From: Alphaproteobacteria bacterium
GTDB taxonomy: Bacteria; Pseudomonadota; Alphaproteobacteria; UBA6615
Assembly (NCBI GenBank): GCA_017643325.1
Contig: JAEPNS010000060.1
Span: forward strand, 1-13,160
DNA: 13,160 nt
Direction: 5' to 3'
In this document: one piece after another, positions 3 to 13,160 of the stretch
How positions within the stretch are numbered: the first letter of the stretch is position 1
Layout of the letters: every line of letters begins with the position of its first letter
Program-made: the position numbers and the translations under genes
Notes under the pieces: model-generated
Seen by the model: only the letters and a program-made list of their open reading frames with translations
What the model was told of the DNA's origin: nothing
The model's database searches: none

Positions 3-767
3 CACCAGTTCTGTTTCGGCGATTCCAACGGCTGTGCGTCCGGCGGCAACCTGGAGGAGGCGATCCTGCAGGGTACGCTGGAGCTGATCGAGCGTGATGC
101 GATTTCGCAGTGGTGGTACAACCGCCTGGCGCTGCCGGCGGCCGACCTGTCGGGCGTCGACACAAAGATCGTCGACTCCATGGAGCGCTACTGCAACGAG
201 CACGGCCTGACGTTCGAGGTGCTCGACCTGACCGCCGACCTTGGCATCCCCGTGGCCGCCTGCGTCACCGCCCGCGCCAGCGACGGCGGCGCGATCACCA
301 TCGGCTTCGGGGCGCATCTCGACCCGGTCGTTGCGTCGACCCGCGCGCTCACGGAGGTCAGCCAGCTGCTGCCGTTCAACGACCAGGGCGAGTTCGCGCT
401 GGACGGGGACAAGTTCACGGCCGCGAAGGACTGGTACGACACGGCGTTCCTGGAGCAGCATCCCTACCTGAAGGCGGCGGACGCTGACCGGGCGGACCTC
501 GCGCCGGGCCTCGGGGATGTGGCGTCGATCGACCAGGCGGTGCGGTTCTGCGTCGACCGGCTGGCGGAATTCGACCTCGAGCTGATCGTGCACGACTTCG
601 ACCGCAAGGACGTGCCGCTGTCGGCGGTGCGCACCGCGGTTCCGGGCATCTGCCACTTCTGGAACCGGCGCGGCAACCCGCGGCTCTACGAGGCGCCGGT
701 GCGCGCCGGTCGGCTCGACAAGCCGCTGACCGAGGACGAACTGAACCCGATCAGCTTCTACGTCTGA
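3..767 (+). CDS. YcaO-domain protein, C-terminal ~255 aa (5' end lies outside the window)
   Basis: Frame 3 is open from position 3 and is the same frame as the listed 180-767 ORF. It translates to HQFCFGDSNGCASGGNLEEAILQGTLELIERDAISQWWYN..., the characteristic YcaO ATP-binding/active-site motif (GxASGxxxEEAxLQGxxELxERDA). GC3 bias is strong. No TfuA-like or other partner gene follows; downstream is a 246-bp noncoding gap. Confidence 0.8.
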   Translation, partial: HQFCFGDSNGCASGGNLEEAILQGTLELIERDAISQWWYNRLALPAADLSGVDTKIVDSMERYCNEHGLTFEVLDLTADLGIPVAACVTARASDGGAITIGFGAHLDPVVASTRALTEVSQLLPFNDQGEFALDGDKFTAAKDWYDTAFLEQHPYLKAADADRADLAPGLGDVASIDQAVRFCVDRLAEFDLELIVHDFDRKDVPLSAVRTAVPGICHFWNRRGNPRLYEAPVRAGRLDKPLTEDELNPISFYV

Positions 768-1253: not shown

Positions 1254-1275
1254 GCTCAAGGCCGGCTCAAGGCCG
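1254..1275. repeat. Perfect tandem 11-mer (ggctcaaggcc x2) spanning the stop codon of the SPFH gene
   Basis: Direct reading: ggctcaaggcc at 1254-1264 and again at 1265-1275. Confidence 0.5.
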
Positions 1276-2634
1276 GGTCACGACCGGCGGCGCGTTGCTC
1301 GGCCGGTTCAGGTCCATCGCCGCACCGGGCGACAGCTCGGTCCCCATGTCGGCCCCCGGGTCGCTGCCCGACATCGCGGTGGTCCCGGTCGAGAGGATCT
1401 GCTGGCTCGCTTCGGGGTTGCCGCCCTGGTCGCCCGCGATCCCGAGACGGCGCAGCGTGCGCTGCCAGCTCGATTCCCGCCGGCTGTGGGAAGAACCGGA
1501 TACGCCCGGCTGCAGGTCCTGGCCGGTCTCGCTGCGCGGCTTCTGCCCGGCGTCGCCCTGGGTCTGGCCCGGGCTGTCGGACGGGTCGAGTTGCGTCCCC
1601 GACGGGGCGGCCGGGAAGGGCTGGCGGGTCGCCGGCTGGTTCATGATGTTGCGGCCGTCGTTCGGGAAGATCGGCGGCAGGCTCTGGAAGTTCGGCAGCT
1701 GGAACTGTTCGGCCGTGACCGGCGGCACCGGCTGCGGCGTGCTCGGCACGTTGGCGATGTCGCTGCCGAGGATCAGCGGCAGCTGGTCCCTGTTGCCGCC
1801 GACGACCACCACCTTGGAGTTCGGCGACTGCGAGAGCTGCACCGTCGCCTCGATGCCGCGCCAGGTGAGCAGCGTGTCGTTCAGCGCCTCGCTGACGATC
1901 GCGTAGAAGTTCCGCAGGCCGATCGCCTGCACGCGCAGGCGCTCGGCCTCGCGCTGCTCGGCGGCGATCAGGAACTCGTACCCGGCCGCGCGCTGCTCCT
2001 GCGCGAGCTTGACGTCGATGGCCGTCGCGACCTGGACCGGCAGGCGGATCTCGGTGATCACAAGGTCGTCGATGGCGATGTCCGCCGACAGGCCGTGCTG
2101 GCGCATCCGCCGCAGGATGTTCTCCTGCAGTTCGGGGTGGTCGACCGAGTAGAGCTCGTTCGAGTTGATGTGGGTGATCTCGTCACGAATGATCGAGCGG
2201 ACCAGGGGCTCGACGATGCGGGTCGGGTAGTCGAGCCCGAGGCGCGTCAGTACGTCCGGCGTGTTCTCGGAGACCGGGCGGAAGAGGGCGGCGCCCTCGA
2301 CCGTCACCCGCATGCCCTCGGCCGACAGGGCGACGACCTCGTAGGGCAGGCGCTGGGTGCGGACCTCGAACAGGAAGATCCTGTCCCAGGGCAGCTTCGC
2401 GGTCAGGCCCTCGCCGATGGTGTCGTCGAGCACCGTGCCCCCGTCGAGCAGGCTGAAGTACACGCCGACATGGCCCGGCGGGACGGTCACGAAGACGAAG
2501 CGCCACAGCACCAGCAGCAGGAAGCCGACAAGGATCGCGATGCCGACCGCCCAGGCAACGATCTTCTCGGTCCTGCCGAACAGCGGTTGCTGCCCGTTGC
2601 GGCGCGCGGCCGTATCTGCCTGTTGCGTCGTCAT
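1267..2634 (-). CDS. SPFH/band-7 (prohibitin/HflC-like) membrane protein with a ~180-aa low-complexity Pro/Gln/Gly/Ser-rich C-terminal tail
   Basis: N-terminal TM helix (IVAWAVGIAILVGFLLLVLW) followed by a band-7-like core (VPPGHVGVYFSLL...EIRLPVQVATAIDVKLAQEQRAAGYEFLIAAEQREAE). The C-terminal third is compositionally biased and disordered-looking. The start ATG (2634-2632) overlaps the upstream ABC gene stop as ATGA. Confidence 0.75.
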   Translation of the reverse strand: MTTQQADTAARRNGQQPLFGRTEKIVAWAVGIAILVGFLLLVLWRFVFVTVPPGHVGVYFSLLDGGTVLDDTIGEGLTAKLPWDRIFLFEVRTQRLPYEVVALSAEGMRVTVEGAALFRPVSENTPDVLTRLGLDYPTRIVEPLVRSIIRDEITHINSNELYSVDHPELQENILRRMRQHGLSADIAIDDLVITEIRLPVQVATAIDVKLAQEQRAAGYEFLIAAEQREAERLRVQAIGLRNFYAIVSEALNDTLLTWRGIEATVQLSQSPNSKVVVVGGNRDQLPLILGSDIANVPSTPQPVPPVTAEQFQLPNFQSLPPIFPNDGRNIMNQPATRQPFPAAPSGTQLDPSDSPGQTQGDAGQKPRSETGQDLQPGVSGSSHSRRESSWQRTLRRLGIAGDQGGNPEASQQILSTGTTAMSGSDPGADMGTELSPGAAMDLNRPSNAPPVVTRP

Positions 2635-4274
2635 CGGGTCTCCTCCCCGTCGGCGGTGCGTTCACGCGCCTGTCCGTCGACCAGCACCAGCGTGCGGTCG
2701 GCGACATGGAAATACTGATCCTCGTGGCTGACGATCACAAGGGTTCGGCCCTCGCGTTTCCACTTCGGAAGCAGCTCGTTGTAGAAGCGTTGGCGGAATT
2801 CAGGGTCCTGGTCGGCGGCCAGCTCGTCGAGCACGAGGATCGGCCGGTTTTCCAGCAGCGCAACCGCCAGCGCAAGACGCTTGCGCTGGCCGGTCGACAG
2901 GTTCGTATTCGTGAATACGCCCTCGCGGTACTGGGTCTTGTGCGCGATGCCGAGCTCGCCGAGCAGCGCGTTGACGTCGGCCTCGGGCACATGCTCGAGG
3001 CCGTAGAGGCGGTCGAACAGGTGGAAATCGCTGAACACACCCGAGAACAGCGCGCGGTAGTCGGCGACGTTGCTCTCGTCGACCGGCACGCGGTCGCGGT
3101 AGATCATGCCGGATTCCGGCTCGTACAGCCGGGTCAGCGCCTTGACCAGCGTCGACTTGCCGCTGCCGTTGCCGCCGACGAGAAACAGCATCTCGCCGCG
3201 CTGGATATGCAGGCTCGTCGGGCCCATCGTGAAGCTGCGCGCGCCGTCCGGGTCGTAGTAGCTGTAGCGCAGGTCCTCGATGTCGATCCGCTCGAACGTC
3301 TCGCCATCCTCGGGCGCGGCTTCCGGGCGCAGCGCGTCGCGCAGGAACCTCTCGACCGTGTCCAGTTCGTCGATCGCGAAATTCGCCCGGGTGATGACGG
3401 GCACGGCTTTCAGGATCACCTCGACGACCGACAGCATGAACACGGCCACGTAGACCGACTGCACGATCACCGCCTGGTCGCCCACGAAGGGCGGCAGCAC
3501 GAACGCGATCATCGCCAGCGTCGTGTAGAAGAACAGGTAGGAGACGCTGATCCCGCGATTGATCTGGATGGCGGCCTCGACCTGGGCGTTGCGAAGCATC
3601 CCGGACTCCGGGGCGAGGTGGCTGTGCTCCAGTGAATCGCCGCGCGGATGGTTGAGCTTCACTTCCTTGAAGCCGTCGATCAGGTGCCGGAACAGCGCGT
3701 AGAAGATGCCCTGCCGCTCGCTCGACGCGGTCAGGGATTCGTGCACCTGCCGCTGCGTCAGGCGGTAGAAGAAGGCGGTCAGCACGATCAGGGTCGCGAT
3801 CACCGCGAACACCAGCGGCGAGACGAGAAGGGTGTAGAAGCCCGCCAGCACCAGCGCGCCGAAGGCCGACACGCCGTGGATCGCCATGATGGCGGCCTCA
3901 GTCAGCATCTGCGAGTTGCGGGTCAGCGTGTCGTAGACCCGGTTCGGTCCGAAGCTTTCGAACCGGCCGTAGTCCGACCGCCGGACGAGGTCGGCATAAT
4001 CCCGGCGGATGCGGTCGAGCAGGTCCTCGACGATGGCCGCCGACAGGCGCTGGCCGACGGCGTTGCCGCCGATGACGCCGAACGCCACGAGTGCGAACAA
4101 AAGGAGGCCGAACAGGTCGGGTGTTGCCGTGCCGTCGGACCCGGTCTCGGGGTCCAGCACGAAGCTGATCACGACCAGCACGCCCAGCAGGCCGAAGGTG
4201 CTGGCCATCAAAGACAGGATCAGCTTGAGGCGGCGTTCCCCCGCCGCTTCCCAGACCAGCCGAATGAACTTCAC
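2631..4274 (-). CDS. Fused permease/ATPase ABC exporter of the YojI/SyrD/PvdE 'cyclic peptide transporter' type, 547 aa
   Basis: N-terminal half carries about 6 hydrophobic TM segments. C-terminal half carries Walker A GGNGSGKST, ABC signature LSTGQRKRLALAVAL and Walker B/D-loop ILVLDELAADQDPEF, which is typical of that family. The start is GTG at 4274-4272 (plus-strand cac), preceded by GAGGA 6 nt upstream on the minus strand. Confidence 0.85.
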   Translation of the reverse strand: MKFIRLVWEAAGERRLKLILSLMASTFGLLGVLVVISFVLDPETGSDGTATPDLFGLLLFALVAFGVIGGNAVGQRLSAAIVEDLLDRIRRDYADLVRRSDYGRFESFGPNRVYDTLTRNSQMLTEAAIMAIHGVSAFGALVLAGFYTLLVSPLVFAVIATLIVLTAFFYRLTQRQVHESLTASSERQGIFYALFRHLIDGFKEVKLNHPRGDSLEHSHLAPESGMLRNAQVEAAIQINRGISVSYLFFYTTLAMIAFVLPPFVGDQAVIVQSVYVAVFMLSVVEVILKAVPVITRANFAIDELDTVERFLRDALRPEAAPEDGETFERIDIEDLRYSYYDPDGARSFTMGPTSLHIQRGEMLFLVGGNGSGKSTLVKALTRLYEPESGMIYRDRVPVDESNVADYRALFSGVFSDFHLFDRLYGLEHVPEADVNALLGELGIAHKTQYREGVFTNTNLSTGQRKRLALAVALLENRPILVLDELAADQDPEFRQRFYNELLPKWKREGRTLVIVSHEDQYFHVADRTLVLVDGQARERTADGEETR

Positions 4275-4366: not shown

Positions 4367-5968
4367 CTAGAATTTGCGGCGGAGTTCCATGCGCACGCCG
4401 GCCAGATCCTCGTCGTTCTCGCGGATGCCGTACATGGCGTCGGTGCGCAGCAGCCACCGGTCGCGGCCGAAGAGGTTCATCTGGTAGCGCAGGCCGAGCG
4501 CATACTGGTCGCCGCGCGCGGCGGACGAGCGCGACATCGGCTGGACGGTGGCGAGTTCGGCAACGATCTGCCGTGACAGGTCGAACAGGTAGCTCACGCC
4601 GATCGCCCCGCCCCACGCATCGCGCGCGGTATCGTCGAGCTTGGGAAACCCCGTCAGTGCGTCGGTCTCGAAGTTGATGCCGGTGTTCTTGAGCAGCCCG
4701 TCGCCACCGCGCGCCAGCGGCTGCGGACGGTCGAGGCCGATGAAGGCGTTGAAGTAGGGAACCAGCGTCGTCGGCAGCGACGTGACGAGCGAGTTCTCCA
4801 CCAGCAGGGCCACGCCGTCGGCGGTCTGCGTCTGGTCGCCGCCGGGATCCTGTCCGACGGCCCACACGGCGCGCACCGAGTTGGACAGCCAGCCGCCGTA
4901 GCGCTTGGTCCAGGCGCCAACGAAGTTATGGTAGCTGAAGTCGCCCTGGGGCCGGTCGCGGGTATCGTCGGTATAGCCCCAGCCCGCCTCCAGGTGGCCC
5001 TCCCGCATGTCGGCGAAGGTCACGACACCGACCACGTTGCCTGCATGGTCGGCGAGCGCGCCGTCGTCGTCCACGAGCGCCGCGCTCGAGACCTTGTCGA
5101 CACCGCCGAAGAAGGTGATGTCGTAGTTGGAGATATCCAGCCGGCGCGAGTTGCGTGCGGTGAGCGCAAACGCGCCGCCGACGAACGCGTCGTCGACCCA
5201 GATGCCGTTCTGGAAGAACATCGGAACAAGCCCGAAGGTGAACGGCAGGTCCCAGCTCGTGTATTCGTCCGACAGGCCGGTGTAGATGGCGCCGAGGTCG
5301 CCTTCGAAGAAGAAGTTCTCGACATTGGCGTCGAGGATCAGGTCGCCCTGGTCGCGGTCGTTGCCGGCGAACTCGTAGCGCGTGAACTGCCCGCCCTGGT
5401 CGACCGGCCGGAAGAAGGCGTGCAGCCGCTCCGTCGCCGTCAGTTTCAGGTCCACATCGAGGTTGAGCCGCGTGGCGACGAGCCCGGTTTCGGTGTCGCC
5501 GTTGTCGTTGAAGGCGACGGCGGTGCGCCAGTCGCCATAGACCAGAAGCTGCGGCCGGACGAGATTCTTCGCCCCGACCAGGTCATGGCCGGCGCCGATC
5601 GGGCCCTCGCGGTATTGCGGGTATCCGAACTCGAGCACCGGGCGCGGCGTGGTCACCGCGCGCTTGCCGCCGTAGATCTCGAGTTGTGCCTCGACGTCGT
5701 ATGGCTCGTCCGGGTAGGTCGGGTCCGGCCGGTAGTCTTCGGCATCGTGCGAGGAGCGCCGGACGGCGGGGTCCATCTCCGGCGGTGCCTGGTGGCCCTC
5801 ATGCTCCGGGCTGCCGGTGCGCTCCTCCTGGAGTTCCGGCGGCGGCGCGCCGCGGCGCGGGGTCTGCGCGGTCTCGATGACAGTCTGGGCGACGGCGCTG
5901 CCGGCGACAAGAAGCGCGGCGGCCAGGGCTGCGGCCGGGGCCGATCGTTTCATGGTGTCCAACATCAC
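4367..5968 (-). CDS. Putative outer-membrane beta-barrel (porin-like) protein, 533 aa. Has a Sec signal peptide and a disordered acidic/Pro/His-rich N-terminal extension.
   Basis: Signal peptide MKRSAPAAALAAALLVAGSAVAQ. The body has alternating hydrophobic/polar residues with abundant Gly/Asp/Asn/Tyr. It ends in ...RMELRRKF with a terminal Phe, typical of OM beta-barrels. The start overlaps the stop of the upstream cytochrome gene (ATGA at 5965-5968). Confidence 0.6.
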   Translation of the reverse strand: MMLDTMKRSAPAAALAAALLVAGSAVAQTVIETAQTPRRGAPPPELQEERTGSPEHEGHQAPPEMDPAVRRSSHDAEDYRPDPTYPDEPYDVEAQLEIYGGKRAVTTPRPVLEFGYPQYREGPIGAGHDLVGAKNLVRPQLLVYGDWRTAVAFNDNGDTETGLVATRLNLDVDLKLTATERLHAFFRPVDQGGQFTRYEFAGNDRDQGDLILDANVENFFFEGDLGAIYTGLSDEYTSWDLPFTFGLVPMFFQNGIWVDDAFVGGAFALTARNSRRLDISNYDITFFGGVDKVSSAALVDDDGALADHAGNVVGVVTFADMREGHLEAGWGYTDDTRDRPQGDFSYHNFVGAWTKRYGGWLSNSVRAVWAVGQDPGGDQTQTADGVALLVENSLVTSLPTTLVPYFNAFIGLDRPQPLARGGDGLLKNTGINFETDALTGFPKLDDTARDAWGGAIGVSYLFDLSRQIVAELATVQPMSRSSAARGDQYALGLRYQMNLFGRDRWLLRTDAMYGIRENDEDLAGVRMELRRKF

Positions 5969-7821
5969 TGAATCTCGAACTCGACCGCGTAGGGATGGAT
6001 GTCGATCATCCAGTCGTTGATCCGTTCCTCCATCTCGCGCGTCGCGCCGACGAAGCGCATGAAGTAGATGGGCTCGGCGCGCGAGCGCATGCGCACCTGC
6101 AGCTTGTAGGTACCGGGCTTGGTCAGCAGTTCGCCGGGCACCTCGTACTCCGCGTCACGCCAGCCGAGCGGCGGGATCGAGCGGCCCTCCATGCGCACGA
6201 AGGGCGGATGGTTCAGCACCGTCGTCGGCAGGTTGGCCGGGCGCAGGAATGGCAGCTGGTCGATGTCGAACTGCACCGGCAGGTACATTTCCCGGTCCGT
6301 GCCCTTGACGTTGGTGGTCAGGAACTTGGTCTGCAGGTTGAAGAGCTGGTCGTCATGCTCGATCGTGCCCGCCGCGACGTCGAGCGAATGCAGGTCCGCC
6401 ATGTCGCCGAGGGAGTCGACGTAGCCCGATTCCCAGATGTTCTTGCCGTCAGGGTCGAGCAGCGCGACGTTCAGCCAGATCTCGGGCTGCGCGCCCAGCG
6501 AACCCGAGGGCAGGTTGTGGCCCTTGTCGGTGTTCGTGACCCGGTAGCGGAAACTGAAATCCCGGCCGAGGCGCGGCGCGCCGTCGTCGAAGAAGGGCCC
6601 GTCGATCCGGCTGCCGTTCTCCATCACGGCGAGGCGGTCGCGGCGCTTGTCCTCCAGCAGCTTCTCGTTCTGCTGGATCACGAAGCGGGCGAACATGCGG
6701 TCATCGCGCTTGCGCCAGACGTCCGGGAAGTCCGGCGTCGCGATCTCGCCGTCACGCAGCCGGTTCTCCCACTCGGCCAGGCCCCACCCGGCGCGGTAGT
6801 CGAAGGTGAGCCATTCCTTGATCGACCAGCGCAGGCCGCGCGGATTGAACGGGAACAGGCCCGGATGCGAGATCGGGTAGCCGGGACCGTAGAAGGCGTG
6901 GTTCGAATGGCGCGCGTTCGGGTCGCCGATCACGCGGCCGTTGACGATCGCGACCGGCCACTCCGCATAGCCCTTCGCCTCGCCCGGCACCTTGCCCATG
7001 TGGCATTCCTGGCACGTGACGCCGGCCTCCGCGGCGGGGCTGTCGCGATACTGCTCCCACACGACCTCGAGCTTGATGCCGAGGTTGACGGCCACCTGGT
7101 GGCAGGACACGCAGAACTGGGATTCGCCGATCTGCTCGAACTCGATGGCGCCGAGGTGAATCTTCGCGCCGTCGGGGTCTTCCTGGGTTGCGACCTTGTA
7201 CTCGTCCGGATTGCTGAGCACGTTCTCGAGATTGTCGGCGCGCCCGATGCCGTAGACCGGCTGCTCGATCGGGCCGGGCTCGATGTGGCGCTCGCCGTTC
7301 ACCTTGCCGAATTCCGCGCCGACGCGGTGGCAGGTGACGCAGGTGATGCCCTCGCGCGCGACGATCGAGCGCTCCCACAGCGGCTTTTCGCGGGCCTCGC
7401 CGCGCTGGGTGCCGACCTGCTGGTGGCAGCGCACGCAGAACGCGCCGATCGTGCCGGACGACAGGTCGTTGATGGCCTGCTCGAACTTGTGGAACATCGG
7501 CGAGATCGACGCGTAGGCGTGGTTCGATGACGCCCACTCCGTGAAGATCTTCTGGTGGCACCGCCCGCAGGTCACGGCCGACGGAAACTCGGTCTCCTCA
7601 AACAGGGCCCGGTGCGGGTCCTTGCCCTCGGTCAGTGTCGACGCGGTCTGGTAGGCCGCCGGCACGTCGCTGCCGTCCGGCGCCGGCGCGAACCAGATCT
7701 GCGACGGGGGCAGCTCGTCCACCGTCATCGCGGTGTCGGAGATGGCCGGCGTCGCGCCGGAGAAAAGAAGGGCGGCGCCGAAGAGGAGCCAGGGGGAATT
7801 GAATTGGCGAAGCACGGGCAC
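5965..7821 (-). CDS. Pentaheme c-type cytochrome, 618 aa; periplasmic, with a heme-free C-terminal ~350 aa
   Basis: Sec-type signal (LLFGAALLFSGA). Five CXXCH motifs (CGRCH, CVRCH, CVTCH, CVSCH, CQECH) all lie in the first ~270 aa. The start is GTG at 7821-7819 (plus-strand cac), 3 nt after the stop of the upstream cytochrome gene, consistent with termination-reinitiation. Confidence 0.85.
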   Translation of the reverse strand: MPVLRQFNSPWLLFGAALLFSGATPAISDTAMTVDELPPSQIWFAPAPDGSDVPAAYQTASTLTEGKDPHRALFEETEFPSAVTCGRCHQKIFTEWASSNHAYASISPMFHKFEQAINDLSSGTIGAFCVRCHQQVGTQRGEAREKPLWERSIVAREGITCVTCHRVGAEFGKVNGERHIEPGPIEQPVYGIGRADNLENVLSNPDEYKVATQEDPDGAKIHLGAIEFEQIGESQFCVSCHQVAVNLGIKLEVVWEQYRDSPAAEAGVTCQECHMGKVPGEAKGYAEWPVAIVNGRVIGDPNARHSNHAFYGPGYPISHPGLFPFNPRGLRWSIKEWLTFDYRAGWGLAEWENRLRDGEIATPDFPDVWRKRDDRMFARFVIQQNEKLLEDKRRDRLAVMENGSRIDGPFFDDGAPRLGRDFSFRYRVTNTDKGHNLPSGSLGAQPEIWLNVALLDPDGKNIWESGYVDSLGDMADLHSLDVAAGTIEHDDQLFNLQTKFLTTNVKGTDREMYLPVQFDIDQLPFLRPANLPTTVLNHPPFVRMEGRSIPPLGWRDAEYEVPGELLTKPGTYKLQVRMRSRAEPIYFMRFVGATREMEERINDWMIDIHPYAVEFEIQ

Positions 7822-7824
7822 GTC

Positions 7825-9126
7825 CTAGTTCAGGTAATCCCGGAGTTTGGCGAGCGCGCTGCGGAAGCCGCTCGATGAGTAGCGGGTCGGGGACTCGGTG
7901 GCCTCGTAGAGGCTTTCGAGTTGCTGCGGCGCGGACCGTCCGAGGGAATCGAGCAGCGCCGCGGCGGCCATGGTGGCCTGTTCGGCGGCGCCGAAGTCGA
8001 CATAGTCCGAGGAATGATCGCGCGATACGAGGGTCGCGAGGGTTGCCTTGAGGTCGGCTTCGCGCAGCGGGTTCTCGACGAGGTTCCGGGTCATGCCGTC
8101 GACCGTGCCCGCGAGCGTGTCAGCCGCGCGCGCCACGGCCGACGCACCCTGGCGGGTGGCGCGGTGCAGGGCGCGGGTCTGTGACTTGAGCGTGTCCGCC
8201 AGCTTGGAATCGCGTCCCTCGGCGATCGCGCGGAGCATCACGAGGTTCGCGTCGTAGAGCTGCGGTTCGCCGGGACCGAGGCCGACACCGGGCTGCGGCG
8301 ACCATTTCGCGTTCGTGTAGGAGTGATGGCAGCTGCCGCACTCGAAGAAGGTGAACTCGGGGAACAGGTGGTTGCGTCCGCGCATGGACTTCGCGAGCGC
8401 GCGCAGCTGGTTGCCGGCGGCGACGGCCTGGCCGATGGCCCACAGGTTTGCCCCGTCCGTCACCGGCTTGCGCTGGCGGTAGTCGTCGTCGATGCGCACA
8501 TGGGCCGGCTGGTTTATGGAGAAGGTGTCGAGCTCGAAGGACAGGCGCGGATGGCCCGCGGCCATCAGGCGGTGCGACACGATCCGGTCCGGGTTGGCCT
8601 GGTGGCATCCGAGGCAGAGTTCCGCCCGCTTCACCGGGTCGTCGGTCGGGTACATGCCCAGCGAGACCAGTGTCGGCCGGTCGCTCAGGCCGCTGACGTG
8701 GGTGCCGAGCCAGTTCTCCGCCCCGCCGTGACAGCTCTCGCAGCCGACACCGCTGGTGATGTCGAAATTGTTGCCGCGCCGGTCTTCGGACACATTGTCC
8801 GCGTGGCACTGCAGGCAGGTCCCGGATTCATGGGCGGCGCCGATCCCCAGCCGCGCGGCGATGCGCTTTCCCCGGTCCGACTGGAGCGCCTTGTAGGCAC
8901 CGGAATGCGCGTCGTGCGTGCTCCAGACAACAAACTCGTTCTGCAACACGACCGAGTTCTGCCAAGGCTGCACCGCGCCGTGACAGGTCGAGGCGGCACA
9001 GGTCTGCACGCCGAGATGGATCGCGCCGTTGTCCTGCGCGAGCGCCTGGTTTGACGTGAACGAAAGTCCGAAAATCAGCGCCGCAACGAACAGGTCGCGA
9101 ACGGCGCGTGCCCCTTGAAAATTCAT
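7825..9126 (-). CDS. Multiheme c-type cytochrome, 433 aa: 4 canonical CXXCH plus one CX4CH, with an Ala-rich helical C-terminal half
   Basis: Signal peptide ending ...SNQALAQ. Motifs CAASTCH (CX4CH), CLQCH, CESCH, CLGCH, CGSCH. The CAASTCH motif was verified by reverse-complementing 8980-9000. First gene of the minus operon that starts at the 9127-9284 divergent region. Confidence 0.85.
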   Translation of the reverse strand: MNFQGARAVRDLFVAALIFGLSFTSNQALAQDNGAIHLGVQTCAASTCHGAVQPWQNSVVLQNEFVVWSTHDAHSGAYKALQSDRGKRIAARLGIGAAHESGTCLQCHADNVSEDRRGNNFDITSGVGCESCHGGAENWLGTHVSGLSDRPTLVSLGMYPTDDPVKRAELCLGCHQANPDRIVSHRLMAAGHPRLSFELDTFSINQPAHVRIDDDYRQRKPVTDGANLWAIGQAVAAGNQLRALAKSMRGRNHLFPEFTFFECGSCHHSYTNAKWSPQPGVGLGPGEPQLYDANLVMLRAIAEGRDSKLADTLKSQTRALHRATRQGASAVARAADTLAGTVDGMTRNLVENPLREADLKATLATLVSRDHSSDYVDFGAAEQATMAAAALLDSLGRSAPQQLESLYEATESPTRYSSSGFRSALAKLRDYLN

Positions 9127-9210
9127 TTTTGCCCCGACCGCTGCCCTGCGGCCCCTTCGCGTTCGATTTCGGAACGGTAACCCAGTATACTCAAATCAGT
9201 TTGTTGGTGT

Positions 9211-9226
9211 AGTGATTCGTATCACA
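9211..9226. promoter_or_regulatory. Candidate CRP/FNR-family operator (aGTGAttcgtaTCACa) in the divergent promoter region between the cytochrome operon and the flavo-FeS operon
   Basis: 16-mer agtgattcgtatcaca matches TGTGA-N6-TCACA with one mismatch. Its core GTGAT-N4-ATCAC is a perfect palindrome resembling the FNR box TTGAT-N4-ATCAA. It is centred ~66 bp upstream of the 9285 start and ~92 bp upstream of the 9126 start. The surrounding 9127-9284 region is the most AT-rich stretch in the locus. Confidence 0.4.
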
Positions 9227-9284
9227 CCCTTCGGCTTGGGCAGCCGGCAGGGTTATTGTAAGGGAGCGGGCCGCCTCAAGGCCC

Positions 9285-11678
9285 GTGGGTTCTGGGGAGA
9301 GTTTCGGGGGCGTGTCTCAGGTTCAGGTCGCCATCGTGGGTTCGGGTCCGGCAGGATTGAGCGCCGGCGCGCGCGCGGCCGTGCGCGGCCTGTCGCATGT
9401 CGTTCTCGAGCGGACCGAGCAGCCGAGCAACACGATCTTCCGCTTCCAGAAGGGTAAGCATGTCATGGCGCAGCCGGCGCACACGCCGCTGCGCAGCGAG
9501 ATCCCGTTCGAGGACGGACGCCGCGAGGATGTGCTCGCGGCCTGGCTTGCCCGCGCGGAAGAACTCGGGGTCAATTTCCGGTTCAATTCCGAGGTCACCG
9601 GCATCACCGGGAGCCGGGGCGATTTCGTCATTTCGCTCGCCGACGGCGAGGAGGTGCGCGCCGAGACGGTCGTGCTTGCCGTCGGACTGCAGGGCAACCT
9701 GAACAAGCTGCGCGTGCCCGGCGCCGAGCTGCCGCATGTCGGCTACCAGCTCGACGATCCCGACGAATTCGAGCATGAGCGGATCGCCGTGATCGGCGGC
9801 GGCGACGCCTCGATCGAGAACGCGCTCGCGCTGGCGGAGCACAACGAGGTCACGATCATCAACCGCTCGGACGAGTTCGCCCGGGCGAAGTCCGCCAACG
9901 AGAGCGCGATCCTCGCCGCGATCGAGTCGGGACGGATGGACGTGGCCTACAACGCGAACACGATCGCGATCGAGCCGGACACGCTGGTGCTCGAGACGCC
10001 CGAGGGCGAGGCGCGCATTCCCTGCGAGCGGATCATCGCGCGTCTCGGCGCGGCGCCGCCGCGCAAGCTGGTCGAGGCCTGCGGCGTGGAATTCCCGACG
10101 GAGGAACGCAACGCGCTGCCGGAGGTCTCCCCGCAGTACGAATCGAACGTGCCCGGGCTGTACGTCGTCGGTGCGCTCGGCGGGTTCCCGCTGATCAAGC
10201 AGGCCCTCAACCAGGGCTACGAGGTCATCGAGCATATCGTCGGGGAGGATGTGGAACCGGCGGACGCGCCGCTGCTGCGCGAGAAAATCTCCGCGGCGCA
10301 GGGCTGGGACGTCGACGGCTTCCTCGAGGCGGTGCGCACGCGTGTCCCGATCTTCGCCGAGCTCAATGCGCTGGTCCTTCGCGACACGATGCTCGAGTCC
10401 GAGGTGCACAGTTTCACGGACGGCGAGATCGTGTTCCGCCGGAACGACTACACCAACAGCCTGTATGTGGTCATCGAGGGCGCGGTGCGGATCCATCTCG
10501 ACGACGAGATGCCGCCGAAGGCGAGCGTGCAGCTGGGGCAGGGCGCCTTCTTCGGAGAGATGGGCCTGATTTCCGGCCGCCGGCGCAACGCGACCGTGTC
10601 CGCGATCGGCAACGCGCTGCTCCTCGAGGTGCCGCGGCGGCGGATGATCACCTTGCGGGCGAGCGTACCGTCGGTCCGCGAGGCGATGGACCGCGAGGCG
10701 GTGGCACGCTCGATCCAGTCGCACCTCGCGCCGGGTCTCGACCGCGACAGCATCGACGACATCGCGGCCGCGGCCACGATCCACAACTGGTCGAAGGGTC
10801 AGGTTCTGTTCAGCGAGGGCGAGGAGGGCGACAGCCTGCACCTCATCCGCCGCGGCTCGGTGCTCGTGCGCAAGAAGATCGGCGACCACGACGTCGTCCT
10901 GAACTATGTGGCGGCCGGCAACTATGTGGGCGAGATGGCGCTGGTCAGCGGCGAGCCGCGCAACGCGACCGTCGCGGCGGCCGCCGACTGCGAGACCATC
11001 CGCATCGAGCGCGACGACTTCAACCGGCTGATGGACCGCCACCCCGACCTGCGCACCGAGATCGAGCAGGTGCGCGAGGCGCGCGCCGCGATCACCGCCC
11101 GCATGGCCGAGAGCCCGGACCAGGGCAGCCTGATCGAGTTCCTGGTCGACCAGGGCGGCAAGGAAGCCACCGACATCCTGCTGATCGACGAGTCCCTGTG
11201 CGTCGGCTGCGACAACTGCGAGAAAGCCTGCGCCGGCACCCACGGCGGCATCACGCGGCTCGACCGCGAGGCGGGGCCGACCTACGCCGACATGCACGTG
11301 CCGACATCCTGCCGGCACTGCGAGCATCCGCACTGCATGAGCGACTGCCCGCCCGACGCCATCAAGCGCGCGATGGGCGGCGAGGTCTACATCACCGATG
11401 CCTGCATCGGCTGCGGCAACTGCCAGCGCAATTGCCCCTACGACGTGATCCAGATGGCGAACCCGCAGATGGGCGAGCGCGGCTGGCTCGCGAGCCTGCT
11501 CGGCGGCATGGCCGGCAAGCGCGCCGAGGTGTCCGACGGGCCCAAGCAGGCCGTGAAGTGCGACATGTGCCTCGACATCGACGGCGGCCCGGCCTGCGTG
11601 CGGGCCTGCCCGACCGGCGCGGCAATCCGCGTCCATCCGTCCGAGGTTATCGAGCTCGTGACCGGGAGCGGGCGATGA
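9285..11678 (+). CDS. Multidomain redox protein, 797 aa: FAD/NAD(P)-binding oxidoreductase (two Rossmann motifs, no CXXC), then two tandem cNMP-binding domains, then a NrfC/FdnH/PsrB-like four-cluster [4Fe-4S] ferredoxin module
   Basis: VAIVGSGPAGL (FAD GxGxxG) and VIGGGDASIENA (NAD(P) motif). Two cNMP-binding signatures: FGEMGLISGRRRNATV and VGEMALVSGEPRNATV. Four Cys clusters: CVGCDNCEKAC, CRHCEHPHCMSDCP, CIGCGNCQRNCP and CDMC...ACVRACPTGA. No signal peptide, so it is cytoplasmic. The GTG start at 9285 is uncertain; GTG at 9312 (VSQVQVAIVG...) is an alternative. Confidence 0.8.
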   Translation: MGSGESFGGVSQVQVAIVGSGPAGLSAGARAAVRGLSHVVLERTEQPSNTIFRFQKGKHVMAQPAHTPLRSEIPFEDGRREDVLAAWLARAEELGVNFRFNSEVTGITGSRGDFVISLADGEEVRAETVVLAVGLQGNLNKLRVPGAELPHVGYQLDDPDEFEHERIAVIGGGDASIENALALAEHNEVTIINRSDEFARAKSANESAILAAIESGRMDVAYNANTIAIEPDTLVLETPEGEARIPCERIIARLGAAPPRKLVEACGVEFPTEERNALPEVSPQYESNVPGLYVVGALGGFPLIKQALNQGYEVIEHIVGEDVEPADAPLLREKISAAQGWDVDGFLEAVRTRVPIFAELNALVLRDTMLESEVHSFTDGEIVFRRNDYTNSLYVVIEGAVRIHLDDEMPPKASVQLGQGAFFGEMGLISGRRRNATVSAIGNALLLEVPRRRMITLRASVPSVREAMDREAVARSIQSHLAPGLDRDSIDDIAAAATIHNWSKGQVLFSEGEEGDSLHLIRRGSVLVRKKIGDHDVVLNYVAAGNYVGEMALVSGEPRNATVAAAADCETIRIERDDFNRLMDRHPDLRTEIEQVREARAAITARMAESPDQGSLIEFLVDQGGKEATDILLIDESLCVGCDNCEKACAGTHGGITRLDREAGPTYADMHVPTSCRHCEHPHCMSDCPPDAIKRAMGGEVYITDACIGCGNCQRNCPYDVIQMANPQMGERGWLASLLGGMAGKRAEVSDGPKQAVKCDMCLDIDGGPACVRACPTGAAIRVHPSEVIELVTGSGR

Positions 11679-12511
11679 GCGCGGCACCCCTGCACAGCGG
11701 GTTCCTGACCCACAAGCGGATGATGTTCGCCTGGCTGGCGCTGCTGCTCGTGCTCGCCGTCGCCGCGGCCTGGTACTGGCAGGAGATGCTGCCGCCGTCG
11801 GCGGTGGATCTCGGGTTCAGCTACGGGCTGGGGACGCTGGCACTTGTGATCATGCTCTGGCTGACATGGTTCGGCGTGCGCAAGCGCAGCTACGCGAAAG
11901 GGGCGGGGCGGCTGAAGGCGTGGCTGTCGGCGCATGTCTATCTCGGCCTGTCGCTGGTGTTCCTCGTGCCGCTGCACGGCGGCTTCACCATCGCGCCGGA
12001 CATCCACGGGATCGCCTATGTCCTCGTGCTGGTCACGGTCTTCACCGGCCTGTTCGGGGTCGCGTTCTACGGTTTCTACCCCCGCCGGGTGACCGCGAAC
12101 CGCGAGGGACTGACCTTCGACGCGATGCTCAAGCGGATCGCGGAGATCGACATCGAGCTGCGCGGCCTGTCGACCCAGCTGTCGGAGGCGGCCAACAACA
12201 TCGTGCGCCGCGAGGCGGAATCGGGCCGCATCGGAGGCGGCGTGGGAATCCTGTTCGCCCGGCCGATCAACAAGGCACGGCGCGCACGCCAGGCGCTGCT
12301 GCGGCTCAACCTCGACTCCGACGCGGGCAACCGCGCGGCGGCGCTGCTCGAGAGCAAGGCGGCCGTGGTCGACAGGCTGCAGCGCGATATCCAGATGCGC
12401 TCGCGCCTGCGGGCGTGGCTGCTGCTCCATGTGCCGCTGTCGCTTGCGACCCTCGCGGCGGTGATCGCCCACGCGGCGGGCATGCTCATGTTCGGCCTCG
12501 GATCGGTGTAA
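11675..12511 (+). CDS. Integral membrane protein (~5 TM, 278 aa) with two His-x13-His pairs in TM helices; candidate diheme cytochrome b membrane anchor
   Basis: ATG at 11675 overlaps the upstream stop (ATGA at 11675-11678). The six-frame track's 11198 start lies inside the upstream gene and is rejected. TM3 WLSAHVYLGLSLVFLVPLHGG and TM5 LLLHVPLSLATLAAVIAHAAG each carry two His 14 residues apart, as in bis-heme b ligation of cytochrome b/FdnI-type subunits. A ~130-aa Arg/Ala-rich soluble region lies between TM4 and TM5. Confidence 0.7.
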   Translation: MSAAPLHSGFLTHKRMMFAWLALLLVLAVAAAWYWQEMLPPSAVDLGFSYGLGTLALVIMLWLTWFGVRKRSYAKGAGRLKAWLSAHVYLGLSLVFLVPLHGGFTIAPDIHGIAYVLVLVTVFTGLFGVAFYGFYPRRVTANREGLTFDAMLKRIAEIDIELRGLSTQLSEAANNIVRREAESGRIGGGVGILFARPINKARRARQALLRLNLDSDAGNRAAALLESKAAVVDRLQRDIQMRSRLRAWLLLHVPLSLATLAAVIAHAAGMLMFGLGSV

Positions 12512-12517
12512 CCGGCC

Positions 12518-13160
12518 ATGCGCGTCCTCGTCACACACCGCCTGCGCCGCACCCGCCGGGAAGGCTATGTCGAGCGCTCCGAGACGCTCGAGGGCGAAAC
12601 CATCCGGATCGGGCGCGGCTCGGATGTCGAGCTGCACCTGCCGGACGGGCGCGTCCTCCTGCACCATGCCACTCTCGCGGTCGAGAACGGCGAGCTGATG
12701 CTGCGCGCGGACCCGAGCGCGGAGATCGAGCTCGACGGCATCCCGGTGGATATCGCCCAGCTCACGCCGGGCCGCACCGTCGCCGTCGGCCCGTACGACA
12801 TTACCTGCGGCGAAGCTGTCGAGGGCCACGACGCCTGTATCAGTGTCGAGCTCGCGCGCCCCATGGGCGATGCCGAGACGATCGTGCGCGAGCGCGTCCG
12901 CACGCCCCTGCTGTCGCGTTCACGCAGCGGATGGGCGCTCGGCGGCCTGCTGGGGCTGGTGCTGCTGGTCGTCGGCGTGGGCATCCCGCTGAGCTCGTTC
13001 CTCGGCGAGCGCGAGACGCAGCGCGTCGCGACCGACGCGGGCGAGACCGACATCATGCGGATGGCGGAGAGCATGTGGCTGACCGAGCAGCTCTCGAGCG
13101 TGCATGACAACCTCGAGGCCGGCTGCCAGGCCTGCCATGTCACGCCCTTTGCGACCGTCG
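12518..13160 (+). CDS. Partial CDS (3' end outside the window): FHA-like N-terminal domain, one TM helix, then an extracytoplasmic region containing a CXXCH heme-binding motif
   Basis: It is absent from the six-frame track because there is no stop before the window end, but frame 2 is open from ATG 12518 to 13160 with strong GC3 bias. N-terminus ETIRIGRGSDVELHLPDGRVLLHHATLAVENGELMLRADPSAEIELDGIPV resembles an FHA fold (GR...SR.HA pattern). TM helix WALGGLLGLVLLVVGVGIPLSSFL. CQACH lies near the window end. Confidence 0.6.
   Translation, partial: MRVLVTHRLRRTRREGYVERSETLEGETIRIGRGSDVELHLPDGRVLLHHATLAVENGELMLRADPSAEIELDGIPVDIAQLTPGRTVAVGPYDITCGEAVEGHDACISVELARPMGDAETIVRERVRTPLLSRSRSGWALGGLLGLVLLVVGVGIPLSSFLGERETQRVATDAGETDIMRMAESMWLTEQLSSVHDNLEAGCQACHVTPFATV

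Follow-up and report, generated by a model that had tools for sequence, protein, structure and literature searches.

A flavin and iron-sulphur protein with two built-in cyclic-nucleotide-binding domains, candidate input subunit of the Ptd multihaem cytochrome system

Introduction

What are two cyclic nucleotide monophosphate (cNMP)-binding domains doing inside an electron-transfer protein, and to what is that protein connected? The question is raised by a 13,160-nt stretch of DNA from an alphaproteobacterium (contig JAEPNS010000060.1 of assembly GCA_017643325.1; the whole stretch is referred to here as the window), in which a single gene, ptdE, joins a flavin module, two cNMP-binding domains and a module of four [4Fe-4S] clusters. 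An earlier note, made from the letters of the window, described the gene as an unusual fusion that implies direct control of an electron-transfer enzyme by cAMP or cGMP. The observation is real and well supported, and the gating interpretation is a reasonable one. We think it somewhat probable that PtdE is the cytoplasmic, nucleotide-gated electron-input subunit of a membrane-spanning cytochrome system, Ptd.

The cluster ptdABCDEFG was named in marine Alphaproteobacteria of oxygen-deficient zones, with its function given as ‘completely unknown’; the gene set comprises a pentahaem cytochrome, a porin, a tetrahaem cytochrome, a cNMP/4Fe-4S protein, a ‘ferric reductase-like’ membrane protein and a decahaem cytochrome (10.1101/2023.11.21.568154). 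The window holds a matching set, with cytochromes carrying five, four (plus one) and ten CxxCH motifs (the last counted in full-length homologues), a porin and a membrane protein, to which we assign the names ptdB, ptdA, ptdD, ptdE, ptdF and ptdG. These names are mapped by description only, because the preprint supplement labels the tetrahaem gene ‘ptdC’ (10.1101/2023.11.21.568154). The separate FAD/NAD(P) oxidoreductase that the preprint calls ‘PtdC’ is absent from the window. The PtdE of the preprint is described with two 4Fe-4S clusters and its flavin module goes unmentioned (10.1101/2023.11.21.568154), whereas PtdE of the window has four cluster motifs and an FAD/NAD(P)H module. No follow-up literature on ptd was found.

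Results

ptdE encodes one polypeptide of three modules

The reading frame is open from 9285 to 11678 on the forward strand, and its translation carries a GSGPAG motif, two GE...RNATV cassettes and four Cys motifs. The earlier note took the product to be a 797-aa protein beginning at 9285; the open frame is as it described, but a start at GTG 9312, giving 788 aa, is more likely, because an NCBI record of a 100% identical protein from an alphaproteobacterial metagenome-assembled genome (P0001; GTG 9312, 788 aa) and the homologue alignments both begin there. Residues are numbered here in the 788-aa form, with residue 1 at GTG 9312; a start at 9285 adds nine residues. Long ORFs occur on both strands of the window because its G+C content is ~68%, and an 803-aa ORF on the reverse strand (9276..11687) was rejected as a shadow ORF, being rich in Arg, Ala and Gly and devoid of any recognisable motif. 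The note had also raised the possibility that the ORF is two genes split by a sequencing frameshift. This is ruled out, since the ORF is colinear with at least 120 full-length homologues and with 80 genomic loci; the best 120 matches are all full-length (750–842 aa, 54–90% identity) and share the same three domain sets.

Domain searches of the kind that the note had proposed found the Pyr_redox, cNMP_binding and Fer4 families, all above the Pfam curated cut-offs, and thereby bear out the fusion. As the note had claimed, the Pfam matches of the ptdE product include no helix-turn-helix family. Neither a signal peptide nor a transmembrane (TM) segment was found in it; the Rossmann β-α-β unit begins within 10 residues of the N-terminus, which argues against a Tat or Sec signal, again as the note had it. 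We conclude that ptdE is a real gene that joins three modules in one polypeptide.

The flavin module resembles ferredoxin-NADP+ reductases of the thioredoxin reductase type

The N-terminal module matches Pyr_redox_3 (106 bits) and Pyr_redox_2 (95 bits) over residues 14–311, above the curated cut-offs. We assessed residue conservation in 81 aligned homologue sequences from 81 species, with 52 database sequences used for the junction residues. Throughout the aligned homologues the FAD site G10-x-G12-P13-x-G15 with E33 is invariant, and so is a second dinucleotide site, G162-x-G164-D165. The segment N184-R185-x-D-E188-F189-x-R191-A-K193 (INRSDEFARAK) aligns with the HRRDGF-RAEK motif of Escherichia coli TrxB, the arginines of which we take to form the NADPH 2′-phosphate site.

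The module is not a thioredoxin reductase (TrxR), because an invariant YQLDDPDE aligns to the redox CATC of E. coli TrxB and CxxC is absent; consistent with this, it scores 62 bits against a cut-off of 343 for that family (TIGR01292). The bacillithiol disulfide reductase YpdA/Bdr (TIGR04018) was likewise rejected, with 135 bits against 339.9, and the position of its Cys14 (GGGPCG motif) is G, A or S in the PtdE family, with C in 3 of 81 sequences. The predicted flavin fold is nearest to YpdA (TM 0.85) and to the TrxR-type ferredoxin-NADP+ reductases (FNRs) 3ab1, 3lzw, 5ygq and 6gar. Flavoproteins of the TrxR-type FNR class hand electrons one at a time to Fe-S proteins. PtdE has their combination of TrxR fold, FAD and NAD(P)H motifs and no CxxC, and as judged from its sequence the flavin module resembles this class, the redox disulfide having been lost.

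Both cNMP-binding pockets are conserved

The cNMP_binding family (PF00027) matches PtdE in two stretches with 132.6 bits against a cut-off of 27.5. The pocket residues G415, E416 and R425 of domain A and G540, E541 and R550 of domain B are present in 81 of 81 sequences, and A427/T428 and A552/T553 are kept in ~90–99% of them. These positions, of the kind that touches the ribose and phosphate of the nucleotide, are in register with G72, E73, R83 and A85 of E. coli CRP, so that the alignment to the CRP pocket suggested by the earlier note recovers the conserved Gly-Glu and Arg in both domains; pockets without the conserved Arg and Glu, which the note would have counted against its claim, are not what we find. 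Its GE...RNATV signature stands for both cassettes of the window, but RNATV is a minority variant and the family mostly has Ser or Thr after the Arg. That residue is S, T, A or N across the family, Asn (the residue in the window) being in the minority, and is uninformative on cAMP versus cGMP.

The tandem aligns as one unit with both domains of protein kinase A (PKA) RI-alpha. In the AlphaFold2 (AF2) model (pLDDT 78, pTM 0.68) the long C-helix of domain B (residues 578–600) leads into the Fe-S module; in PKA and Epac the corresponding helix moves upon ligand binding. Because the pocket residues are invariant in 81 species and no other output domain is present, direct cNMP control of an electron-transfer protein is the most economical reading.

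The Fe-S module is of a cytoplasmic type

The C-terminal module matches Fer4_11 (40.6 bits, cut-off 26.2), Fer4_7 (43.8 bits) and Fer4-related families over residues 671–779, and all 16 of its Cys residues are 100% conserved in the 81 sequences. The earlier note assigned the module to the FdnH/NrfC type. Its four clusters are upheld by the 16 invariant Cys, but its nearest relatives lie elsewhere: the closest solved structures are the cytoplasmic electron wires HycB3/HycB4 (7qv7) and HycB (7z0s), the NCBIfam families most like it are HydN and the AegA N-terminus, with ArrB, DmsB and NrfC ranking lower, and FdnH is not among the 25 NCBIfam families shown. The Tat export and/or C-terminal TM anchor that mark the FdnH/NrfC subtype are also missing, as PtdE has neither signal peptide nor TM segment.

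Both junctions between modules hold invariant residues (P316-A317-D318; F610, G615, E618, T620, D621, L623, I625 and E627), which suggests that the flavin, cNMP and Fe-S domains are coupled. When the PtdE model was searched with Foldseek, each match covered either the flavin module or the cNMP tandem, with a PKA regulatory domain at rank 32, and no solved structure resembled full-length PtdE.

ptdF and ptdG are conserved neighbours of ptdE

The note remarked that ferredoxin modules of this kind usually dock onto a membrane b-cytochrome. The remark was apt, and the candidate partner is the next gene, ptdF, the ATG of which overlaps the TGA of ptdE as ATGA; the two genes are probably translationally coupled. 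What the note’s account had missed, beside sound domains and this docking remark, is that partner and the conserved multihaem-cytochrome cluster around it.

The 278-aa PtdF has no Pfam match at 1e-3. Five His residues (H87, H101, H111, H252 and H266) are invariant in its family, and H87/H101 and H252/H266 form two His-x13-His pairs in predicted TM helices (AF2 pLDDT 85.7; helices 77–101 and 216–273). PF01292 (cytochrome b561) scores 14.7 bits in PtdF of the window, below the cut-off of 30.1; 32 of 35 relatives match it weakly (best E 3.5e-8), and 11 of 35 members have a weak match to Ferric_reduct. PtdF is likely, on the strength of these histidines and weak matches, to be a two-haem cytochrome b. 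By the positive-inside rule, applied to the invariant R69-K70-R71 loop and the YPRR loop, we infer that both loops are cytoplasmic, in which case H87/H252 would ligate a haem on the cytoplasmic side and H101/H266 one on the periplasmic side.

PtdG is cut by the edge of the window; full-length homologues have ~569 aa and 10 CxxCH motifs. The order of its parts, an N-terminal cytoplasmic FHA-like domain, one TM helix and then the haem domain, is unusual for a periplasmic multihaem cytochrome. FHA scores 37.8 bits in the PtdG of another locus (L032:13244-14926) and falls below the cut-off in that of the window; of the IGRG motif the G-R alone is invariant, and the usual Ser-x-x-His is hard to make out. 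The FHA-like domain has no mention in the preprint (10.1101/2023.11.21.568154). It may dock on PtdE or PtdF, or may read Ser/Thr-kinase signals.

Gene linkage was examined at 80 loci by unbiased clustering of ORFs within 7 kb of a homologue. A ~298-aa membrane protein (PtdF) lies on the same strand in 59 loci, at a median gap of 28 nt, and PtdG (~569 aa, with its FHA-like domain and 10 CxxCH) does so in 60. A ~433-aa tetrahaem cytochrome is divergent from, or directly upstream of, the ptdE homologue in 29–30 loci. Partners were also counted with HMM searches of six-frame translations of the 10-kb neighbourhoods of the 80 loci: PtdG is present within 10 kb in 69, in two gene orders, and PtdF is matched in 62. 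Seven of the 11 loci without a PtdG match have <800 nt of downstream sequence, and nine loci seemingly without partners have a permuted order, (F)-G-...-D-E. The linkage is reciprocal: in Erythrobacter colymbi the gene before that of a 38%-identical PtdF overlaps it by 4 nt and encodes a Pyr_redox/cNMP/Fer4 protein of 817 aa, and a multihaem cytochrome comes after it. In the closest relative (L001) the cluster ends at the same points on both sides. We conclude that ptdE, ptdF and ptdG are tightly and reciprocally linked; their positions are given with those of the other features in Table 1.

Table 1 Positions of the ptd genes, the PtdE modules and the adjoining intergenic region in the window
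Feature	Coordinates	Strand	Description
ptdE-like gene	9312..11678	+	788 aa (797 aa from alternative GTG 9285); flavin module, two cNMP-binding domains, four-cluster Fe-S module
TrxR-fold FAD/NAD(P)H module	9312..10247	+	residues 1–312; FAD and NAD(P)H motifs, no CxxC
cNMP-binding domain A	10344..10706	+	residues ~345–465; phosphate-binding cassette FFGEMGLISGRRRNATV, nt 10554–10595 = G415–T428
cNMP-binding domain B	10719..11111	+	residues ~470–600; cassette YVGEMALVSGEPRNATV, nt 10929–10970 = G540–T553
Four-[4Fe-4S] ferredoxin module	11175..11651	+	residues 622–780; C630/633/636/640, C667/670/675/679, C698/701/704/708, C750/753/762/766
ptdF-like gene	11675..12511	+	278 aa, ~5 TM helices and cytoplasmic helical insert; putative two-haem cytochrome b
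ptdG-like gene, 5′ part	12518..13160	+	ends at window edge; FHA-like domain residues 23–93, one TM 144–162, first CxxCH at 203
ptdD-like tetrahaem cytochrome c	7825..9126	-	433 aa, signal peptide, 4 CxxCH and one CxxxxCH; divergent from ptdE
ptdA-like pentahaem cytochrome c	5965..7821	-	618 aa, signal peptide
ptdB-like putative outer-membrane porin	4367..5968	-	533 aa, signal peptide, C-terminal Phe, no Pfam match; name from preprint description
ptdD/ptdE divergent intergenic region	9127..9311	.	CRP-like palindrome AGTGA-N6-TCACA at 9211–9226

A proposed electron route and its alternatives

As a tentative proposal, which we hold possible without expecting all of it to be right, PtdE, PtdF and PtdG would together be a second-messenger-gated, quinone-independent path that exports electrons from cytoplasmic NAD(P)H across the inner membrane to periplasmic and outer-membrane multihaem cytochromes, a bacterial functional analogue, built of several subunits, of NADPH oxidases and ferric reductases in which cAMP or cGMP would act directly on the wire instead of on transcription. 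In the broader reading of PtdE as input subunit, which we think somewhat probable, NAD(P)H (NADPH more likely than NADH) would reduce FAD in the TrxR-fold module, and the electrons would run along the four [4Fe-4S] clusters at the PtdE C-terminus. If the proteins form a complex, this wire would hand them to the two b haems of PtdF in the membrane, and PtdF would pass them to the periplasmic decahaem PtdG, then to the tetrahaem and pentahaem cytochromes and possibly through the porin to a terminal acceptor. Binding of cAMP or cGMP, whichever is the ligand, may shift the position of the Fe-S wire towards the flavin or PtdF and so switch the flow on or off; nucleotide binding would be expected to move the wire because the C-helix of domain B leads directly into the Fe-S module. 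Outward flow takes electrons from the negative side of the membrane to the positive one, which both thermodynamics and the membrane potential favour, and it would drain NADPH as well as that potential. Tight gating at the protein level would thus have a rationale, since reducing power and membrane potential would otherwise be lost.

The same complex might instead run in reverse, with electrons from periplasmic or extracellular donors (Fe(II), reduced sulphur or nitrogen species, an electrode) entering through the cytochromes and PtdF to reduce NAD(P)+ at PtdE, and with the cNMP domains regulating uptake. TrxR-type FNRs and HycB-type wires can in principle work in either direction. Nitrite oxidisers are noted in the preprint as carrying ptd genes, and nitrogen or iron cycling is discussed there (10.1101/2023.11.21.568154), and PtdE hosts include Woeseiaceae and other possible lithotrophs. 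Such flow would nevertheless oppose the membrane potential, and reduction of NAD(P)+ would need a donor of very low potential or an input of energy; the cluster has no evident subunit for coupling to protons or ions. We consider inward flow unlikely.

The two remaining alternatives leave the direction of flow aside and question the gate and the docking. The cNMP-like domains could have ceased to sense a cyclic nucleotide and serve as a structural spacer, a dimerisation scaffold or a site for another small molecule, as domains of the CRP/FNR family include binders of haem, 2-oxoglutarate, chlorophenols and other ligands. The recurrent gene clusters of the 10-kb neighbourhoods, not all of which were scanned, showed no conserved gene for a nucleotide cyclase, and this too would fit. 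CRP/FNR domains with divergent ligands typically lose the phosphate-binding cassette, whereas both PtdE domains keep G-E and R-x-A-T without exception or almost so in 81 species, even though overall identity is only ~50–60%, and the Pfam score is high at 132.6 bits; we regard loss of nucleotide sensing as quite improbable. PtdE could also be a free-standing soluble NAD(P)H:acceptor reductase, acting on a metal chelate, a quinone or a small redox protein, that is co-expressed with PtdF without docking on it. It stands alone in two loci and at the far end from PtdG in one operon layout, as this would allow. Such independence is hard to square with the ATGA coupling to PtdF here, the 4-nt overlap in Erythrobacter and the adjacency of PtdE and PtdF in the great majority of loci with enough sequence. 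A chain of four clusters, moreover, spans tens of angstroms by estimate, which suits a wire to a partner and is needless for a small-molecule reductase. We see only a slim chance that PtdE works in this way.

Other features of the window and the cluster

The ABC exporter (2631..4274), the SPFH protein (1267..2634) and the YcaO gene were rejected as parts of the system, as their proximity to ptdE is not conserved at other loci and a transposase stands there in L001, the closest relative. A YcaO-domain gene (3–767, forward strand, open at the left edge of the window), an SPFH/Band-7 gene (1267–2634, reverse strand) and a fused TMD-NBD ABC exporter gene (2631–4274, reverse strand) lie near one another and could belong to a peptide locus of the RiPP or azoline type. 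On the other side, ptdF is hidden inside an over-extended ORF (11198..12511), and a forward-strand ORF over ptdF and ptdG (11866..13107, 413 aa, no Pfam match) was rejected as a spurious alternate frame, a typical artefact of high G+C content that a gene caller could mis-annotate.

In most genomes outside the lineage of the window, ptdA and ptdB are replaced by three other conserved genes on the same strand (L032:14923-22364, L003:15492-22351 and ~36–46 other loci). The first encodes ~650 aa with three stretches of the haem-binding or haem-degrading HbpS type, another ~600 aa without a Pfam match, and the third an LVIVD-repeat protein of ~1200 aa that carries 10 CxxCH. The trio looks like a second, undescribed output module for the PtdE-F-G core. 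Near the N-terminus of PtdD, in the region of residue 43, a CAASTCH (CxxxxCH) occurs besides the four CxxCH and, as a motif, could bind a fifth haem.

The CRP-like palindrome between ptdD and ptdE reads AGTGA-ttcgta-TCACA; its core, GTGA-N6-TCAC, is present a single time in the window, where 0.17 would be expected, and also ~74 nt upstream of ptdE in L001. The core was found in 3 of 81 loci, and we rejected the palindrome as a feature of the family. The site is a faint hint that cAMP-CRP might also control transcription in the lineage of the window. The ptdD/ptdE intergenic region of L001 (L001:9790-9945) has a duplicated ~60-nt segment (tagtatggt...cccgctatggtcac.gtga..aata.cacttgg, twice) that carries CRP-like half-sites.

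The PtdE family is widespread

With each species represented by one genome, at least 593 stretches encoding relatives were counted among Alpha-, Beta- and Gammaproteobacteria. Cultured hosts include Oceanibacterium hippocampi, Zavarzinia sp., Alcanivorax sp. 1008, Pseudomarimonas arenosa and Erythrobacter colymbi. NCBI annotates homologues as ‘cyclic nucleotide-binding domain-containing protein’ and JGI as ‘CRP-like cAMP-binding protein/thioredoxin reductase/Fe-S-cluster-containing hydrogenase component’. To call the fusion unusual, as the earlier note did, was thus an overstatement: the architecture is common, JGI had already annotated it, and the name PtdE is in the preprint. The family is widespread, named and otherwise uncharacterised, and what is new relative to characterised systems is that cNMP sensors are built into a flavo-Fe-S input on a conduit of the porin-cytochrome type.

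Discussion

If a cNMP gates electron flow in PtdE, this would be, as far as we found in the literature, the first cyclic nucleotide to act directly on a respiratory-type electron-transfer chain. The proposed route, if true, would give a porin-cytochrome system an NAD(P)H-fed input that bypasses quinones, and would be present in hundreds of proteobacterial species. Ecological weight comes from the high transcription of ptdAB in abundant Alphaproteobacteria of marine oxygen-deficient zones (10.1101/2023.11.21.568154), where iron-reducing microbes are unknown. The hypothesis is directly testable, because cultured hosts exist.

Each module of PtdE has characterised counterparts from which it departs in its connections. 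The two-Rossmann TrxR fold is shared with YpdA/Bdr (7a7b) and with the TrxR-type FNRs (Bacillus subtilis YumC, 3lzw; Chlorobaculum, 3ab1; Rhodopseudomonas palustris, 5ygq). The FNRs also have FAD and NAD(P)H motifs without CxxC and transfer one electron at a time to an Fe-S partner; PtdE is likened to them by sequence and fold. In PtdE, by contrast, the Fe-S partner is fused in cis with two cNMP domains in between, and the cNMP tandem occupies the region of the C-terminal subdomain that stacks on the flavin in FNRs.

For the tandem itself, the PKA regulatory subunit shares the CNB-A/CNB-B arrangement, and mycobacterial Pat, a cAMP-regulated acetyltransferase in which a fused cNMP domain controls the enzyme directly without a helix-turn-helix, is a bacterial precedent; PtdE has an NCBIfam match to the Pat-related NF058543. 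The regulated activity in PtdE, unlike Pat and PKA, would be electron transfer, and we found no characterised cNMP-oxidoreductase fusion in the literature.

The 16-Cys, four-[4Fe-4S] module is common to PtdE, HycB, HydN, the AegA N-terminus and FdnH. FdnH pairs with the cytochrome b FdnI much as PtdE appears to pair with PtdF, a putative membrane cytochrome with two haems and a sub-threshold relation to PF01292, but PtdE is cytoplasmic and lacks a Tat signal and a TM anchor. Where HycB and FdnH serve a molybdo- or NiFe-enzyme, the Fe-S module of PtdE is fused to its own flavin dehydrogenase. AegA/YgfT and GltD-type proteins likewise have both an NAD(P)H-flavin module and a ferredoxin module of several clusters in one polypeptide, in the reverse domain order, with a flavin domain of another subfamily and without regulatory domains.

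At the level of the whole system, NADPH oxidases and ferric reductases (NOX/FRE) carry electrons from cytoplasmic NAD(P)H through a flavin and two transmembrane b haems to an outside acceptor, and the proposed Ptd route would be alike, except that its steps fall on separate subunits, a four-cluster wire is inserted and PtdF matches Ferric_reduct weakly. The ptd gene set resembles the MtrCAB-type porin-cytochrome conduits in having a porin beside multihaem cytochromes. Mtr systems take their electrons from the quinone pool through CymA, whereas the Ptd route would have no quinol dehydrogenase step.

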